Made by a program: the position numbers and the translations under genes. Below the pieces are notes generated by a model. It made no database searches, had not been told where the DNA came from, and saw nothing but the letters and a program-made list of their open reading frames with translations. Of a stretch of 43,035 nt of DNA, positions 33,606 through 43,035 are shown in pieces (positions within the stretch are counted from its first letter, which is position 1; the number at the start of each line of letters is the position of its first letter). Source of the stretch: a virus (taxonomy: Duplodnaviria; Heunggongvirae; Uroviricota; Caudoviricetes); the IMG/VR virus record IMGVR_UViG_2690316195_000004. The stretch is one strand, 5' to 3'.

Positions 33606-36600
33606 ATGGGTAAAGGCAGCAGTAAGGGGCATACTCCGCGCGAAGCGAAGGACAACCTGAAGTCCACGCAGTTGCTGAGTGTGATCGATGCCATCAGCGA
33701 AGGGCCGATTGAAGGTCCGGTGGATGGATTAAAAAGCGTGCTGCTGAACAGTACGCCAGTGCTGGACAGTGAGGGGAATACCAACATCTCCGGCGTCACG
33801 GTGGTGTTCCGGGCCGGTGAGCAGGAGCAGACACCGCCGGAGGGATTTGAATCCTCCGGCTCCGAGACGGTGCTGGGTACGGAAGTGAAATACGACACGC
33901 CGATCACCTGGACCATCACGTCGGCAAACATTGACCGACTGCGTGTTACCTTCGGCGTGCAGGCACTGGTGGAAACCACCTCAAAGGGGGACAGGAATCC
34001 GTCGGAAGTCCGCCTGCTGGTTCAGATACAGCGTAATGGTGGCTGGGTGACGGAAAAAGACATCACCATTAAGGGCAAAACCACCTCGCAGTATCTGGCC
34101 TCGGTGGTGGTGGGTAACCTGCCGCCGCGCCCGTTCAGTATACGGATGCGCAGGATGACGCCGGACAGCACCACAGACCAGCTGCAGAACAAAACGCTCT
34201 GGTCGTCATACACCGAAATCATCGATGTGAAACAGTGCTACCCGAACACGGCACTGGTCGGTGTGCAGGTGGACTCGGAGCAGTTCGGCAGCCAGCAGGT
34301 GAGCCGTAATTATCATCTGCGCGGGCGTATTCTGCAGGTGCCGTCGAACTATAACCCGCAGACGCGGCAATACAGCGGTATCTGGGACGGAACGTTTAAA
34401 CCGGCATACAGCAACAACATGGCCTGGTGTCTGTGGGATATGCTGACCCATCCGCGCTACGGCATGGGGAAACGTCTTGGTGCGGCGGATGTGGATAAAT
34501 GGGCGCTGTATGTCATCGGCCAGAATTGCGACCAGTCGGTGCCGGACGGCTTTGGCGGCACGGAGCCGCGCATCACCTGTAATGCCTGGCTGACCACACA
34601 GCGCAAGGCGTGGGATGTGCTCAGTGATTTCTGCTCGGCGATGCGCTGTATGCCGATATGGAACGGGCAGACGCTGACGTTCGTGCAGGACCGACCATCA
34701 GATAAGGTGTGGACCTATAACCGCAGTAATGTGGTGATGCCGGATGATGGCGCGCCGTTCCGCTACAGCTTCAGCGCCCTGAAGGACCGCCATAATGCCG
34801 TTGAGGTGAACTGGATTGACCCGGATAACGGCTGGGAGACGGCGACAGAGCTTGTGGAGGACACGCAGGCCATTGCCCGTTACGGTCGTAACGTCACGAA
34901 GATGGATGCCTTTGGCTGTACCAGTCGGGGGCAGGCGCACCGCGCCGGGCTGTGGCTGATTAAAACGGAACTGCTGGAAACGCAGACCGTGGACTTCAGC
35001 GTGGGTGCGGAAGGGCTTCGCCATGTACCGGGGGATGTCATTGAAATCTGCGATGATGACTATGCGGGTATCAGCACCGGCGGGCGCGTGCTGGCGGTGA
35101 ACAGCCAGACCCGGACGCTGACGCTCGACCGTGAAATCACGCTGCCATCCTCCGGTACCACGCTGATAAGCCTGGTTGACGGAAGTGGCAATCCGGTCAG
35201 CGTGGAGGTCCAGTCCGTCACCGACGGCGTGAAGGTAAAAGTGAGCCGTGTTCCTGACGGCGTTGCCGGATACAGCGTGTGGGGGCTGAAGCTGCCGACG
35301 CTGCGCCAGCGACTGTTCCGCTGCGTGAGTATCCGTGAGAACGACGACGGCACGTATGCCATCACCGCCGTGCAGCATGTGCCGGAAAAAGAGGCCATCG
35401 TGGATAACGGGGCGCACTTTGACGGCGACCAGAGCGGCACGGTGAATGGTGTCACGCCGCCAGCGGTGCAGCACCTGACTGCCGAAGTCACCGCAGACAG
35501 CGGGGAATATCAGGTGCTGGCGCGCTGGGACACACCGAAGGTGGTGAAGGGCGTGAGCTTCCTGCTCCGTCTGACCGTAACAGCGGACGACGGCAGTGAG
35601 CGGCTGGTCAGCACGGCCCGGACGACGGAAACCACATACCGCTTCACACAACTGGCGTTGGGGAACTACAGGCTGACAGTCCGGGCGGTAAATGCGTGGG
35701 GACAGCAGGGCGATCCGGCATCGGTATCGTTCCGGATTGCCGCACCGGCAGCGCCGTCTCGGATTGAGCTGACACCGGGCTATTTTCAGATAACCGCCAC
35801 GCCGCATCTTGCGGTTTATGACCCGACGGTACAGTTTGAGTTCTGGTTCTCGGAAAAACGGATTGCGGATATCAGGCAGGTTGAAACCAGCGCGCGTTAT
35901 CTTGGTACGGCACTGTACTGGATAGCCGCCAGTATCAATATCAAACCGGGCCATGATTATTATTTTTACGTTCGCAGTGTGAACACCGTTGGCAAATCGG
36001 CATTCGTGGAGGCTGTCGGTCAGCCGAGTGATGATGCATCAGGCTATCTGGATTTTTTCAAAGGCGAGATAGGGAAAACCCATCTGGCTCAGGAGCTGTG
36101 GACGCAGATTGATAACGGTCAGCTTGCGCCTGACCTGACTGAAATCAGGACGTCCATAACGGATGTCAGCAATGAAATAACACAGACCGTCAATAAGAAA
36201 CTGGAAGACCAGAGTGCAGCGATCCAGCAGATACAGAAGGTTCAGGTTGATACAAATAATAACCTGAACAGCATGTGGGCAGTGAAGCTGCAGCAGATGC
36301 AGGACGGACGCCTTTATATTGCGGGTATCGGTGCCGGTATTGAGAACACCCCTGACGGCATGCAGAGTCAGGTGCTGCTGGCAGCAGACAGGATTGCGAT
36401 GATTAATCCTGCGAATGGCAACACAAAGCCGATGTTTGTTGGTCAGGGCGATCAGATATTCATGAATGAAGTGTTCCTGAAACGCCTGACGGCCCCCACC
36501 ATTACCAGCGGCGGTAATCCTCCGGCATTTTCCCTGACATCAGACGGGAGACTGACGGCGAAAAATGCGGATATCAGTGGCAGTGTGAATGCGAACTCAG

Positions 36601-37103
36601 GAACGCTCAACAATGTCACGATTAACCAGAACTGTACGATTAAGGGCATGCTGGAGGCGACCCAGGTCAGAGGAGATTTCGTTAAAGCTGTATCAAAAGC
36701 CTTCCCGAAAAAAGTCGGTACGTGGGGTAACACGGAAACACCAAACGGTACGGTTACAGTCACCATCAGCGATGATCATAACTTTGACCGCCAGATTATT
36801 ATTCCGCCCATTATTTTTAACGGTATAGCGTATGACGATCCGGGGAGCGGAAATAACCCAGGAGGCACGCGATACACGGGTTATGGTTTTGAAGTTCGCA
36901 AAAACGGCGTATTAATCGCATCCAGAGAAACTAAAGGGGCCATTCCCGGTAGTTACAGTGCAGTTATTGATATGCCGAGTGGCAGGGGAAGCGTCACTCT
37001 GGAGTTTAAGATTTTCCAGAAAGGCAATCAGGGGGCAGGCAATATCACCGACTGTACGGTGATTGTGACCAAAAAAGCCGCTTCCGGCATCAGTATTCGT
37101 TGA
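33606..37103 (+). CDS. J: Central tail fibre / host specificity protein J with divergent C-terminal receptor-binding region
   Basis: 1165-aa ORF; N-terminal about 800 aa colinear with lambda gpJ; C-terminal third differs from lambda J. Confidence 0.9.
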
Positions 37104-37122
37104 AATATTTATAACCCCAATA

Positions 37123-37150
37123 AAGGGCGTCAGGAATGACGCCTTTTTTA
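37123..37150 (+). terminator. Rho-independent terminator after J
   Basis: Hairpin GGCGTCA-GGAA-TGACGCC followed by T-run. Confidence 0.7.
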
Positions 37151-37173
37151 TTGCAGAAAAGCGAGAGGTAATT

Positions 37174-37773
37174 ATGCGTAAAGTTTGTGCAGCAATTTTG
37201 TCCGCAGCCATTTGTCTGGCCGTATCCGGTGCGCCTGCATGGGCGTCTGAACATCAGTCCACGCTGAGCGCGGGGTATCTTCATGCCTCGACGAACGTCC
37301 CCGGCAGCGATGATCTGAACGGGATTAACGTGAAATACCGTTATGAGTTTACGGACACACTGGGGCTGGTGACGTCATTCAGCTATGCAGGAGACAAGAA
37401 TCGCCAGCTGACCCGTTACAGCGATACCCGCTGGCATGAAGATTCCGTTCGTAACCGCTGGTTCAGCGTAATGGCGGGGCCGTCTGTGCGCGTGAATGAA
37501 TGGTTCAGCGCGTATGCGATGGCGGGTGTAGCTTACAGCCGTGTGTCGACTTTCTCCGGGGATTATCTTCGCGTAACTGACAACAAGGGGAAAAAGCACG
37601 ATGTGCTGACCGGAAGTGATGACGGTCGCCACAGCAACACGTCTCTGGCGTGGGGGGCTGGCGTGCAGTTTAACCCGACCGAATCCGTGGCCATTGATAT
37701 TGCTTATGAAGGCTCCGGCAGTGGTGACTGGCGCACTGACGGTTTCATCGTGGGTGTCGGTTATAAATTCTGA
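37174..37773 (+). CDS. lom: Lom outer-membrane protein (Ail/Lom family)
   Basis: 199-aa ORF with signal peptide and beta-barrel C-terminus ...GFIVGVGYKF; SD GAGAGG. Confidence 0.9.
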   Translation: MRKVCAAILSAAICLAVSGAPAWASEHQSTLSAGYLHASTNVPGSDDLNGINVKYRYEFTDTLGLVTSFSYAGDKNRQLTRYSDTRWHEDSVRNRWFSVMAGPSVRVNEWFSAYAMAGVAYSRVSTFSGDYLRVTDNKGKKHDVLTGSDDGRHSNTSLAWGAGVQFNPTESVAIDIAYEGSGSGDWRTDGFIVGVGYKF

Positions 37774-37796
37774 TTAGCCAGGTAACACAGTGTTAT

Positions 37797-37827
37797 GACA
37801 GCCCGCCGGTTCAGGCGGGCTTTTTTG
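37797..37827 (+). terminator. Rho-independent terminator after lom
   Basis: Hairpin GCCCGCC-GGTTCA-GGCGGGC followed by six T. Confidence 0.7.
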
Positions 37828-37837
37828 TGGGGTGAAT

Positions 37838-40800
37838 ATGGCAGTAAAGATTTCAGGTGTACTGAAAGACGGCACAGGAAAACCGGTACAGAACTGCACA
37901 ATCCAGCTGAAAGCAAAACGTAACAGCACCACGGTGGTGGTGAACACGCTGGCCTCAGAAAATCCGGATGAAGCCGGGCGTTACAGCATGGACGTTGAGT
38001 ACGGGCAGTACAGCGTTATTCTGTTGGTGGAGGGATTCCCGCCGTCACATGCCGGGACCATCACCGTGTATGAAGATTCCCGACCCGGTACGCTGAATGA
38101 TTTTCTCGGTGCCATGACGGAGGATGATGCCCGTCCTGAGGCACTGCGCCGTTTTGAACTGATGGTGGAAGAGGTGGCGCGTAACGCGTCCGCGGTGGCA
38201 CAGAACACGGCAGCCGCGAAGAAGTCAGCCAGCGATGCCAGCACATCAGCCCGTGAGGCGGCAACCCATGCGACTGATGCTGCAGATTCAGCACGTGCAG
38301 CCAGCACGTCAGCCGGACAGGCCGCTTCGTCGGCTCAGTCAGCGTCTTCCAGCGCAGGAACGGCATCAACAAAGGCCACTGAAGCCTCAAAAAGTGCTGC
38401 CGCTGCAGAGTCCTCAAAAAGCGTGGCAGCTACCAGTGCCGGTGCGGCGAAAACGTCAGAAACGAATGCCGCAGCGTCAGAACAATCAGCCGCCACTTCT
38501 GCATCCACCGCGACCACGAAAGCGTCAGAAGCTGCCACCTCAGCCCGGGATGCGGCGGCCTCAAAAGAGGCAGCGAAATCATCAGAAACGAACGCATCCT
38601 TGAGCGCCAGTAGCGCAGCTTCCTCGGCAACGGCGGCAGGAAATTCCGCGAAGGCGGCAAAAACGTCCGAGACGAACGCCAGGTCTTCTGAGACGGCAGC
38701 GGGACAGAGCGCCTCAGCTGCGGCAGGCTCAAAAACAGCGGCTGCGTCGTCTGCCAGTGCCGCGTCAACAAGTGCCGGGCAGGCCTCAGCCAGTGCCACC
38801 GCCGCCGGAAAATCGGCAGAAAGCGCCGCATCATCCGCTTCAACAGCCACAACGAAGGCTGGCGAAGCCACTGAGCAGGCCACGGCAGCAGCGAGGTCAG
38901 CTTCCGCAGCGAAGACATCCGAAACGAACGCGAAAGCGTCGGAAACCCGTGCAGAATCCTCAAAAACGGCAGCGGCATCGTCCGCCAGTTCGGCGGCGTC
39001 ATCGGCATCATCGGCGTCTGCTTCAAAAGATGAGGCGACCAGACAGGCGTCAGCAGCGAAGGGCAGCGCCACGACGGCATCCACGAAGGCGACAGAGGCT
39101 GCTGGTAGTGCGAAGGCAGCAGCTCAGAGCAAAAGTACGGCGGAATCTGCAGCAACGCGCGCTGAGACAGCGGCAAAACGGGCAGAGGATATTGCATCCG
39201 CCGTGGCGCTTGAGGATGCGAGCACGACGAAAAAGGGGATAGTACAGCTCAGTAGTGCGACTAACAGCACTTCCGAGTCACTGGCGGCAACACCAAAAGC
39301 CGTTAAGGCCGCGTATGACCTGGCTAGCGGGAAATACACCGCACAGGATGCAACGACAGCACAGAAAGGGATAATCCAGCTAAGCAGCGCGACCAACAGC
39401 ACGTCTGAAACGCTGGCGGCAACGCCAAAGGCAGTAAAAGCAGCCAATGACAATGCTGAGAAACGTCTGCAGAAAGATCAGAACGGTGCGGATATCCCTG
39501 GCAAAGACACCTTTACGAAAAATATTGGTGCCTGCCGTGCCTTCGGTGGGTCAGTAAGCACAACAACAGGAAACTGGACGACTGCACAGTTTATCGAGTG
39601 GCTGGATTCTCAGGGAGCATTTAACCATCCATACTGGATGTGCAAGGGTTCCTGGTCTTATGGCAATAATAAAATCATTACTGATACTGGCTGCGGTAAT
39701 ATTCATCTCGCCGGAGCTGTCATTGAAGTAATGGGGATAAAGTCAGCGATGACGATCCGCATTACCACTCCGACCACATCCAGCGGTGGCGGAACAACCA
39801 ACGCCCAGTTTACCTATATTAATCACGGAACAGATTATTCACCTGGCTGGCGAAGGGACTATAACTCCAGAAATAAGCCAACGGCATCAGAGATCGGGGC
39901 GCTACCGTCAGGTGGAACAGCAGTATCATCAGTTAATCTGGCTTCAAAAGGTCGGGTAGCCGCGCTGACAGACAATACGCAGGGGGCAGCAGGTCTTGAG
40001 TTATACGAGGTGTATAACAACGGATATCCAACAACGTATGGAAATATCATTCACCTGAAAGGGATGACAGCCGTTGGCGAAGGTGAGTTACTCATCGGCT
40101 GGAGTGGTACAAGCGGTGCTCATGCTCCGGCATTTATTCGTTCACGACGGGATACGACCGACGCAAACTGGTCGCCGTGGGCGCAGCTTTACACCTCGGC
40201 TCATCCTCCTGCAGAGTTTTATCCAGTCGGTGCACCAATCCCGTGGCCATCAGATACCGTTCCGTCTGGTTATGTCCTGATGCAGGGGCAGACTTTTGAC
40301 AAATCTGCATACCCGAAACTTGCAGCCGCTTATCCGTCAGGCGTGATCCCTGATATGCGTGGCTGGACGATTAAGGGCAAACCTGCCAGTGGTCGGGCCG
40401 TATTGTCTCAGGAACAGGACGGCATTAAATCGCACACCCACAGCGCCAGCGCATCCAGTACGGATTTGGGGACGAAAACCACATCGTCGTTTGATTACGG
40501 CACTAAATCCACGAATAACATCGGGGCGCATACGCACAGTGTGAGCGGTACAGCCGCAAGTGCCGGAAACCATACTCATAGTGTCACAGGCGCATCAGCA
40601 GTCAGCCAGTGGTCACAAAATGGGTCAGTACATAAGGTAGTGTCTGCGGCCAGTGTGAATACAAGTGCTGCAGGAGCGCACACTCATAGTGTCAGCGGCA
40701 CAGCTGCATCTGCAGGTGCTCACGCACATACTGTCGGTATTGGTGCTCATACGCACTCGGTTGCGATTGGCTCACATGGACACACCATCACCGTTAACGC

Positions 40801-40864
40801 TGCTGGTAACGCGGAAAACACCGTCAAAAACATCGCATTTAACTATATTGTGAGGCTTGCATGA
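37838..40864 (+). CDS. stf: Side tail fibre Stf (long form, Ala/Ser-rich repeats, tail-collar domain and His-box tip)
   Basis: N-terminus [26 protein letters not shown]... as in lambda Stf; central A/S/T-rich repeats; C-terminal collar-like segment and repeated GAHTHSV His boxes. Confidence 0.9.
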
Positions 40865-41763
40865 TTACGCTCATTCTTTCTGCACCAGTAACCGAAATGG
40901 CTGAAGCATTTAAGCGGGTATTTGCAAATGCAGATAATGTGAATATTGTCGGAAAGCCATTTGAAACAATCAGAGAATTTGACTGCATGGTAAGTGCGGC
41001 AAATAGTTTCGGCCTGATGGATGGCGGTGTTGATGCCGCCATTACCACATTCTTCGGTTCTCAGCTACAGGCCCGCGTTCAGAATCATATTCTTCGTGAA
41101 TATCTCGGCGAGCAGCCTGTAGGTTCTGCATTTGTTATTGAAACGGGGCATAATTATCACCCCTGGCTGGTACATGCGCCAACAATGCGTGTTCCGTTGA
41201 CAATTGACGGAACAGACGCTGTATATAACGCAACTTGGGCAGCTCTACTTGCTATCTTTCAGCACAATAAAAACGCAACGACAGACAGGAAAATAAAGAC
41301 GGTGGTATTCCCTGCAATGGGAGCCGGATGTGGTCAGGTGCCGTTTGAAAGCGTTGCCCGGCAGATGAAGCAGGCATGGGATAACTTTAATAAAAAAACA
41401 GAATCAATTAACTGGGAATACGCACAATCCCGCCAGTCGGCAGTATTTGGCACATATGCATACTGTCCGGGTAATTCTGTTTGCCGTTATGCGGATACTA
41501 AATATATTGGATGCGGCGATTATCGGACGTATTGCTCACGTTCCGGGCAGGTCTGTATTAACCCTGAACATCAGGCTGATGATGTACTGATACAACATCA
41601 GGCTAATAACCGGTTTCGCCCTGGTTCGCATATACACCGGATTAATCCAGAAAATCCTGTAGGTAATGTCATCTCTGGCGCACATAGCCACGGAAGTAGC
41701 ATCGTTATTGGTGCTCACACCCATACGCTCAATAAACAATATTCTGTCTCTGATATTAAGTAG
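40861..41763 (+). CDS. Macro-domain protein fused to a tail-fibre-tip-like His-box C-terminus
   Basis: N-terminal about 180 aa carry macro-domain motifs ([19 protein letters not shown]; [14 protein letters not shown]); C-terminal about 110 aa are Cys-rich then [19 protein letters not shown], resembling the Stf tip; ATGA overlap with stf stop. Confidence 0.6.
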
Positions 41764-41771
41764 AGGTGAAC

Positions 41772-42347
41772 ATGGATTTCAGAATGAGTGAACAACCACG
41801 GACCATAACAATTTATAATCTGCTGGCCGGAACTAATGAATTTATTGGTGAAGGTGACGCATACATTCCGCCTCATACAGGTCTGCCAGCAAACAGTACC
41901 GATATTGCACCGCCAGATATTCCGGCTGGTTTCGTGGCTGTTTTCAACAGTGATGAGTCATCGTGGCATCTCGTTGAAGATCATCGGGGTAAAACGGTTT
42001 ATGACGTGGCTTCCGGCGACGCGTTATTTATTTCTGAACTCGGCTCATTACCGGAAAATGTCACCTGGTTATCCCCGGAAGGGGAGTTTCAGAAGTGGAA
42101 CGGCACAGCCTGGGTGAAGGATACGGAAGCAGAAAAACTGTTCCGGATCCGGGAGGCGGAAGAAACAAAAAACAGCCTGATGCAGGTAGCCAGTGAGCAT
42201 ATAGCGCCGCTTCAGGATGCTGTGGATCTGGAGATCGCAACGGAGAAAGAAACCTTGTTGCTGGAAGCCTGGAAAAAGTATCGGGTGTTGCTGAACCGTG
42301 TTGATACATCAACTGCACCGGATATTGAATGGCCAGCCCTACCGTAG
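41772..42347 (+). CDS. tfa: Tail fibre assembly chaperone Tfa
   Basis: [54 protein letters not shown]... matching lambda Tfa. Confidence 0.9.
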
Positions 42348-42444
42348 GGTAAGATATATAAATTCTATAATTAGAAGTATCTTTCCATTTAAGGCTAGGA
42401 AGGGGGGCTTGGAAAACGTAAGGAATCTCACACCGAGATTATTT

Positions 42445-43035
42445 TTATATATCAGGTGTCTGATTTTTTGCTTTAGCTCTTAAAATGGTTTGCCGCGAGG
42501 TTTTGAATTCTTGGGCAATGTCACTTATATTTATACCTGACTTAATTTGCTCTAGTACCCTCTGTATTTGTTCATCATTTAACACAGGTGGGCGACCAAA
42601 TCGCTTTCCTGCGCCCCGTGCTCTTAATATCCCTGAATGAGTACGCTCAAGTAAAAGGTCTCGCTCAAATTCAGCGACTGCTGAAATTACTTGCATCATC
42701 ATTTTTCCAGGTGGACTGGTCAGGTCAACGCCCCCCAATGCTAAGCAATGCACTTTGATACCTGCTTTGGTCAGTTGTTCCACCGTTTTACTGATATCCA
42801 TTGGATTACAACCGAGGCGATCCAGTTTTGTGACAATCAATGCATCACCTCTTTTCAGTCGATCAAGCAACTGGTTAAAACCAGGACGCTCACTGGTTGC
42901 TGCTGAGCCGCTAATTTGTTCTTCAATTATTTGCTGAGATTTGATGTTAAAACCTGCACTTTCGATTTCCCGACGTTGATTTTTGGTTGTCTTTTCCAGA
43001 GTTGATACCCGACAGTAAGCATAAATTCGAGACAT
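42445..43035 (-). CDS. pin: Serine DNA invertase (Pin/Gin/Hin family)
   Basis: [17 protein letters not shown]... with catalytic Ser and C-terminal HTH; start codon is the last three bases of the window. Confidence 0.9.

Follow-up and report, generated by a model that had tools for sequence, protein, structure and literature searches.

Why would a phage keep a gene for a macro-domain protein between its side tail fibre gene, stf, and its fibre assembly chaperone gene, tfa? The question is raised by the right end of IMG/VR record IMGVR_UViG_2690316195_000004, a lambdoid late region in a stretch of 43,035 nucleotides (nt) from a member of the Caudoviricetes, a prophage; this stretch is called the window here. 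We find that this macro gene is a genuine, selectively maintained and optional accessory gene that travels in a gp37/Stf-type 'fibre tip + Tfa chaperone' cassette, and that it is common, annotated and dispensable. Its role is a more tentative matter. With a probability of roughly 0.4, we favour the reading that its product is a late-expressed cytoplasmic hydrolase of ADP-ribose derivatives, trimerised via a fibre-like tail and acting in counter-defence.

A selectively maintained gene in the fibre-tip cassette

The macro gene, its parts and its two partners are laid out as follows (aa, amino acids):

37832–40864, + strand: stf, side tail fibre gene of 1010 aa, with the Pfam domains phage_tail_N, Phage_fiber_2 and Collar
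40852–40864, + strand: stf/macro junction, with GAGG at 40852–55, the macro ATG at 40861–63 and the stf TGA at 40862–64, the overlap being ATGA
40861–41763, + strand: macro-domain accessory gene of 300 aa, its product identical to RefSeq WP_000631346.1
40861–41448, + strand: macro domain proper, aa 1–196, of the Macro2/Ymx7 type
41449–41595, + strand: Cys-rich linker, aa 197–245, as seen in homologue alignments
41596–41760, + strand: His-box tail, aa 246–300, with the boxes GSHIH, GAHSH and GAHTH, homologous to gp37/Stf fibre ends
41772–42347, + strand: tfa, fibre assembly chaperone gene of 191 aa (Pfam Caudo_TAP, E 3.7e-44), its start set at ATG 41772 by the annotated homologue in an ST131 prophage (L001)

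The initial annotation had placed a 300-aa open reading frame (ORF) in this slot, with its start overlapping the stf stop, and was right on both counts. Specifically, GAGG lies 6 nt upstream of the macro ATG, which overlaps the stf stop, and the resulting ATGA is, by its sequence, a predicted site of translational coupling. At the other end, the macro TAG is followed by GAGG (41763–66) and then, 8 nt on, by the tfa ATG. Promoter-like and terminator-like sites were not above shuffled expectation, and none flanked the macro ORF. Since the gene lacks its own promoter and terminator, and its translation is tied to that of stf on the upstream side and of tfa on the downstream side, the macro protein should be made late, alongside the fibre. 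The gene resembles morons in its deviating GC content (45.5% versus 55.7% for stf), but it lacks the promoter and terminator of its own that define a moron, its start and stop being coupled to the neighbours.

Comparison with related stf–tfa loci indicates that the slot is fixed. All 12 loci examined, down to 51% identity, keep the order fibre–macro–tfa. Loci with this order and an overlapping start include the lambdoid Gifsy-1 (STM2588.1n), the P2-like SEN4, SEN5 and Chuche, a P1-like IncY phage-plasmid, the ST131 prophage, and loci of Erwinia and Izhakiella. The homologues in Gifsy-1, SEN4, SEN5 and Chuche (PHROG 2613) are members of one family with the macro protein of the window, 63–84% identical and alike in three-part architecture and slot, while the Salmonella homologues differ in being shorter (269–274 aa), in the number and spacing of their His boxes and in an 11-nt overlap with tfa. 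PHROG 2613, described as of 'unknown function', covers aa 1–270 of the macro ORF (E 3e-147).

Among complete Escherichia coli genomes, 128 of 5426, or about 2%, carry the macro gene, which overlaps a tail fibre gene in all E. coli matches listed; a query made of the stf tip, macro gene and tfa gave matches in 5209 genomes and spanned its full length in 116. At 90% identity the gene forms about 1700 clusters, drawn from Escherichia, Salmonella, Erwinia, Citrobacter and Enterobacter, and reading frames of 269–300 aa are intact in hundreds of clusters from these five genera. The view that a macro domain is no usual occupant of this slot holds for its frequency; the gene itself, however, is already labelled in databases, as a 'macro domain-containing protein' in RefSeq, with a note of its Pfam domain in the Gifsy-1 record, and within the PHROG family.

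The macro gene is under purifying selection, with a ratio of nonsynonymous to synonymous substitution (dN/dS) of about 0.1. By part, Nei–Gojobori estimates were 0.08–0.20 for the macro domain, 0.13–0.5 for the linker and 0.26–0.95 for the His tail. In the pairs window/L006 and L002/L013, dS of the macro part and of the tail part was 0.11 versus 0.03 and 0.28 versus 0.03, respectively; this inequality within one pair points to recombination inside the macro gene.

The gene is optional as well as conserved. In many sampled records the two flanks are joined directly, at ~97% nucleotide identity and within ~1.14 kb. Two prophages without the macro gene, one of O157:H7 and one Qin-like, have a Stf whose last 190 aa are 99–99.5% identical to those of the window and a Tfa that is 94–95% identical; fibre and chaperone that change so little evidently work without the macro gene, with no sign of co-adaptation. 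The stf GAGG serves tfa instead in macro-less loci (...GTGAGGCTTGCATAATGGCA...), the junction of these two prophages reads ...GTGAGGCTTGCATAATGGCATTCAGAATG..., and the natural macro-less stf–tfa junction carries GCATAATGGCA. In the window, the 7 nt AATGGCA of the macro-less junction are replaced by GATTACG...[macro]...GAGGTGAACATGGAT. The inserted cassette thus has clean boundaries and the size of one gene, and translational coupling is restored at both its ends. This natural presence and absence between near-identical fibre and chaperone genes makes knockouts and comparisons easy.

Several homologues deserve a separate mention. In E. coli ST2350 (H96, NZ_CP031321.1, 3294811–3298119), a macro copy 100% identical to that of the window is split by an IS3-family transposase gene and annotated as two macro-domain coding fragments. 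Salmonella phage SEN34 (L003, 5001–5183) carries a fragment comprising the end of the macro domain and the Cys linker (query aa 184–244, 61% identity), which adjoins an acyltransferase-3 gene rather than a fibre operon and looks like a recombination remnant. A locus labelled as a metagenome-assembled genome of a Bacillota bacterium (L012) contains an Escherichia-type stf tip, macro gene and tfa at 91% identity, and probably comes from an enterobacterial phage whose contig was mis-binned, not from a Bacillota host.

Macro domain, cysteine linker and His-box tail

The macro-domain signatures seen in the N-terminal half of the ORF by the initial annotation were borne out by profile and model, the fold spanning the N-terminal two thirds. 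Pfam Macro (PF01661) matches aa 44–169 with 68.6 bits against a cut-off of 22 (E 5.9e-19), covering profile positions 1–118 of 118. In the AlphaFold 2 (AF2) model, built from a 68-sequence alignment, the predicted local confidence (pLDDT) is above 93 up to residue 190 and ~84 for residues 191–200, and the predicted fold is the three-layer α/β/α sandwich of macro domains.

By both profile and structure, the nearest relative is yeast Ymx7 (YMR087W, PDB 1njr), an ADP-ribose-1''-monophosphatase, which comes ahead of MacroD, ALC1/TARG1/DarG, macroH2A, PARG and the viral clades; the macro family profile matches it across the whole domain with E 2.4e-15. Residues N48, D58 and H105 of the macro ORF align with Ymx7 N80, D90 and H145. 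All three are invariant across full-length homologues (alignment A1), and N48 and D58 are nearly invariant in a wider alignment (A2) too. Asn80, Asp90 and His145 of Ymx7 are reportedly the catalytic triad proposed by Kumaran et al. in 2005. Together with the motif HAPTMRVP, which contains H105, and the GAGCG loop at 154–158, the alignment indicates that the macro ORF keeps the residues lining the ADP-ribose/phosphate site of the yeast phosphatase: N48, D58, H105 and the glycine loop. The two proteins share ~20% identity. Ymx7 has inserts and a C-terminal helical domain that are absent from the phage protein, which carries the Cys linker and His-box tail; moreover, Ymx7 is a eukaryotic housekeeping enzyme.

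For the Macro2-type clade itself, Pfam Macro_2 (PF14519) gives a partial match to aa 42–112 with 23.4 bits, below the gathering threshold of 27; we regard this result as borderline because many homologues have precomputed PF14519 hits. The loop-2 aromatic typical of MacroD hydrolases is absent, the loop reading GAGCGQ. Membership of the DarG/AdfM type was rejected, the NCBIfam antitoxin_DarG model scoring 12.7 bits against a cut-off of 250 and the PADLOC DarG model 14.4 bits (E 0.005), and DarG structures rank below Ymx7. The PADLOC scan of the macro ORF returned nothing beyond this 14-bit match, so membership of a defence system was likewise rejected.

In an exhaustive search, ~1300 representative proteins matched the macro domain at E<1e-10, most of them stand-alone proteins of ~200 aa from Chloroflexota, Cyanobacteria, Acidobacteriota and eukaryotes, and a scan of genome contigs again found mainly cellular stand-alone homologues of the three bacterial phyla. 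These relatives suggest that the phage macro domain derives from a widespread cellular enzyme family. Three more distant stand-alone homologues (P0125, P0128 and P0131) were found on contigs whose shortness left their gene context uninformative. The relative in jumbo phage PhiPA3 is gp271 (246683–247123), a second macro protein distinct from AdfM gp108; related jumbo phages also encode relatives, several of which are recorded as 'tail protein', apparently by annotation transfer alone.

The linker follows the pattern YCPx4C...YIGxGDYRTxCx3Gx2CIx3HQxDD, with C202, C208, C225 and C232 conserved, and is modelled as a β-hairpin and helix (AF2 pLDDT ~70–85). Pfam, PHROG and profile scans gave it no match beyond its own family. 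Two loci of Izhakiella australiensis (L016 and L018) keep the macro domain (~51% identity overall) and the GAHxH boxes, and have the linker swapped for a different, far more Cys/His-rich sequence (CGC..., CDCGCG..., CRCG...).

The tail carries three G[AS]HxH boxes, a number reached in 0 of 200,000 shuffles. Homologues have 1–4 boxes, and in some Salmonella homologues these recur at a 9-residue periodicity, as in fibre needles. An hhalign comparison of the tail alignment (A3) with a fibre-tip alignment (A4) gave 93.4% probability and E 2.5e-7 over 38 columns; the aligned region runs from D241 to the end of the macro protein and pairs with the part of fibre tips that is made up of the last His boxes and the NAENTVKNI segment. 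By BLASTP the tail matches the fibre with E 0.003. At the nucleotide level, the best repeat shared with the Stf end is 35 nt at 74%. A recent duplication of the Stf end is thereby ruled out, and the tail is better understood as an old, truncated copy of a fibre end. The initial annotation had suspected that the tail and the Stf tip share both Cys-rich and His-box motifs; the His boxes are indeed shared, whereas Stf has no cysteine past residue 621. As anatomy, its picture of a macro domain with a borrowed fibre-tip cassette is thus supported.

The fibre tips from which the tail derives are of the T4 gp37 type. The last ~145 aa of Stf form a His-box needle with seven HxH boxes at aa 868–986, the Stf tips beside macro genes are of one type in every macro-bearing locus, and their profile matches the T4 gp37 tip (2xgf) with E 1.2e-38. 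The macro tail (aa ~241–300) is homologous to the last His boxes and NxENTVKNI segment of the T4 gp37, lambda Stf, P2 H and Mu S tips. Unlike these fibres, the macro protein has no N-terminal attachment domain, shaft repeats, collar or receptor-binding head, contains none of the fibre Pfam domains, and ends in ...SVSDIK, short of the conserved AFNYIVRLA; the His-box (GxHxH) needle repeats are the fibre feature that it has, and two thirds of it is an enzyme fold, which we found described in no fibre. With no fibre domains and a tail that stops before AFNYIVRLA, it is not a fibre protein. Its slot corresponds to that of gp38 in T-even phages, between the fibre gene and whatever comes next; the macro protein itself resembles neither gp38 adhesins nor Tfa. 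A search of the C-terminal 115 aa against a set of 5.8 billion proteins returned only truncated copies of the macro gene and no other N-terminal domain fused to the tail, and Pfam and PHROG scans of the tail found its own family alone. Overall, the macro gene falls outside the fibre family, the DarG/AdfM family, invertible segments and classical morons.

Possible roles of the macro protein

According to the reading that we favour, the macro protein would be made late with the fibre, coupled to stf and tfa. Its tail would most likely form a metal-bridged trimer in the manner of gp37, and Tfa, encoded just downstream, would probably assist in trimer assembly. This analogy is drawn because the T4 gp37 needle, which was produced with co-expressed chaperones, holds seven iron atoms along its length, coordinated by metal-binding histidines from its three chains (PMC6957217), and because Tfa/gp38 chaperones act on just such C-terminal segments, Tfa binding the distal fibre (PMC9608196). 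Late in infection the enzyme would then work within the host cell, its target being a metabolite, signal or modification derived from ADP-ribose; it would take off a phosphate or an ADP-ribosyl group, with the outcome that an ADP-ribose-based host response is blunted. The gene would be unnecessary for building or using the fibre.

A cytoplasmic, counter-defence role is favoured because macro substrates are intracellular and because the active site, judged by its aligned residues, appears to match that of cytoplasmic relatives. Additionally, among tail-less homologues the nearest (63% identity) belongs to a phage contig, flanked there by ParB_N/methyltransferase genes on one side and the terminase gene on the other, and late structural proteins can trigger immunity based on ADP-ribose (ADPR), the triggers including side tail fibres and their chaperones (bioRxiv 10.64898/2026.06.04.730250). 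Finally, the sole phage macro protein of known role is an anti-DarT2 factor: AdfM of jumbo phages (PhiKZ gp104, PhiPA3 gp108) reverses DarT2 DNA ADP-ribosylation by removing ADP-ribose from DNA (PMC13309987). AdfM, a phage-encoded stand-alone macro-domain protein, differs from the present one in belonging to a DarG2-like macro clade, in lacking a fibre-like tail and in lying outside a fibre operon.

Several points weigh against a cytoplasmic counter-defence enzyme. The strict synteny (12/12) and the fibre-like tail fit an association with fibre or virion at least as well. The sole studied Macro2-type member is reported to be a phosphatase for a tRNA-splicing by-product, converting Appr-1''-p to ADP-ribose, and no de-MARylating activity is reported for the clade (PMC6397177); such phosphatase chemistry is no obvious counter-defence chemistry. 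The ORF also scores low on both DarG/AdfM-type models (12.7 and 14.4 bits), and late expression is a poor fit to early-acting defences. As for the tail, its profile alone found no match in the PDB, and its AF2 pLDDT as a monomer is below 50, which yields no confident structure.

A bolder form of the counter-defence reading, which we think rather improbable, is that the tail brings the enzyme, a trimer that processes ADP-ribose, to the very Tfa/fibre-tip assembly sensed by defences that signal through ADP-ribose, so that the trigger is packaged with its own signal eraser. This would amount to a 'PAMP-linked' counter-defence (PAMP, pathogen-associated molecular pattern) that shares a cassette with the fibre tip and moves with it among lambda-, P2- and P1-like phages. 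An equally unprecedented alternative is a macro enzyme carried on the virion fibre tip.

Such a virion- or fibre-associated module, in which the His-box tail, with or without Tfa, docks a macro-domain trimer onto the side tail fibre, is the main rival, though an unlikely one. The enzyme or binding domain would sit at the fibre tip of the particle and act on or recognise a cell-surface structure, like T2-type gp38 adhesins and fibre-borne esterases. The position of the gene and its coupling at both sides agree with this, as do a synteny that never varies, whether between E. coli and Izhakiella (51% identity) or among phages of the lambda-like, P2-like and P1-like kinds, and the homology of the tail to the fibre needle end, including an NxENTVKNI-like segment. 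The tail also accompanies the fibre-locus position, the single tail-less close homologue examined being found at another place in a phage genome; in Ur-lambda and Mu, Tfa stays in mature phages (PMC9608196); and the four conserved cysteines could make disulfides extracellularly. However, enterobacterial surfaces are not known to carry an ADP-ribose-like ligand, and the active site has the residues of cytoplasmic relatives. The macro protein also lacks the fibre attachment domain, collar and terminal AFNYIVRLA, and we found no virion proteomics in the literature. The fibre-associated enzymatic module proposed by the initial annotation therefore still stands but is weakened, as sampled macro-less prophages keep the fibre tip (99% aa identity) and Tfa (94–95%) essentially the same, which leaves no co-evolved docking surface. 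It is doubtful that the trimeric macro protein is a non-catalytic binder, or sponge, that sequesters gcADPR, His-ADPR or free ADP-ribose without hydrolysis. In favour of binding, the MacroD loop-2 aromatic is missing, and phage sponges for ADP-ribose-derived immune signals are common and oligomeric. Macro domains moreover read His-ADPR in ThsA of type II Thoeris (bioRxiv 10.64898/2026.06.04.730250).

We consider it very improbable that the gene serves the lysogen, that is, that prophage expression, for example by read-through from lom, helps the host as a defence or antitoxin-like gene or in metabolic clean-up. The low, moron-like GC content would suit such a role, and the lambdoid fibre region does host lysogenic-conversion and defence genes, with lom upstream and, in the ST131 prophage, a reverse-transcriptase/SLATT pair downstream. 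Against it, promoter and terminator signals do not exceed chance, a start coupled to a late structural gene through ATGA suggests the opposite, the gene also occurs in phages isolated as free particles (Chuche, SEN4/5), and no PADLOC family matches beyond 14 bits. Hardly credible at all is the idea, envisaged in the initial annotation, that the gene is a scar of recombination, or a fusion artefact without expression, dating from an exchange of fibre-tip cassettes or from the action of the nearby invertase. The tail does look like a fibre end, the gene is mosaic, with dS unequal between its N- and C-terminal parts, and an invertase gene lies 100 nt past tfa; but the architecture is a family trait with a conserved linker, selection is purifying (dN/dS about 0.1), and hundreds of clusters have unbroken frames; nor are there crossover repeats, and loci without any invertase show the same gene order. 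Both the scar tied to pin and the artefact were accordingly abandoned.

Phage macro-domain proteins are known, and a literature search found no functional study of this gene or its homologues. What looks new is the combination of a Macro2/Ymx7 macro domain with a tail derived from a gp37 needle, as well as the fixed stf–tfa slot and the travel with a host-range cassette across siphovirus, myovirus and phage-plasmid backgrounds. Counter-defence by a phage macro domain has been shown only recently (AdfM, 2026) and for the DarG type, whereas the present gene is of the other, Macro2/Ymx7 type. It occurs in well-used models, namely Gifsy-1 of S. Typhimurium LT2, ST131 and STEC prophages (STEC, Shiga toxin-producing E. 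coli) and P1-like phage-plasmids. If its function were shown, it would represent either an enzymatic counter-defence of a new sort, linked to a structural trigger, or the first macro domain as a virion component. For engineered phages in which stf–tfa cassettes are swapped, the cassette may bring the macro gene as a passenger.

The neighbouring invertase and other features

The remaining genes of the region are the following:

33606–37103: J
37174–37773: lom, upstream of stf
42445–43035, − strand: pin-type serine invertase gene of 196 aa, with the Pfam domains Resolvase and HTH_7; a mere neighbour, outside the feature under study

The pin gene starts exactly at the window end and is separated from tfa by ~100 nt. 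It is 85% identical to a pinQ-annotated gene at the same position in a Qin-like prophage (L007), which has the same stf–tfa–pin arrangement. Qin-type prophages of K-12 carry stfQ–tfaQ–pinQ with no inverted alternative, and no suitably placed inverted-repeat crossover sites of at least 16 nt were found in 37000–43035; the link with the invertase is thus coincidental. Gifsy-1, SEN5 and the ST131 prophage have the fibre–macro–tfa order with no invertase beside tfa. An invertible segment of the Mu G, P1 C or e14 P type was rejected on these two grounds, the lack of crossover repeats and the existence of the order without an invertase.

Downstream of tfa in the ST131 prophage (L001, 9609–11508), which otherwise matches the window, the place of pin is taken by other genes: those for a reverse transcriptase and a SLATT-domain protein form a defence-like pair on the opposite strand. 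The pin gene of the window and this pair suggest that the position just past tfa is a site of variable cargo.

Two further observations concern the flanking genes. Stf is repetitive and rich in Ala, Ser and Thr at aa ~110–490 (window ~38150–39300), a stretch in which other frames and the opposite strand show several long but spurious ORFs. The Rfam model IS009 (RF02111) matches 42115–42313 (+) over its full length with 218.5 bits against a gathering score of 117, entirely inside the 3' half of the tfa coding sequence.

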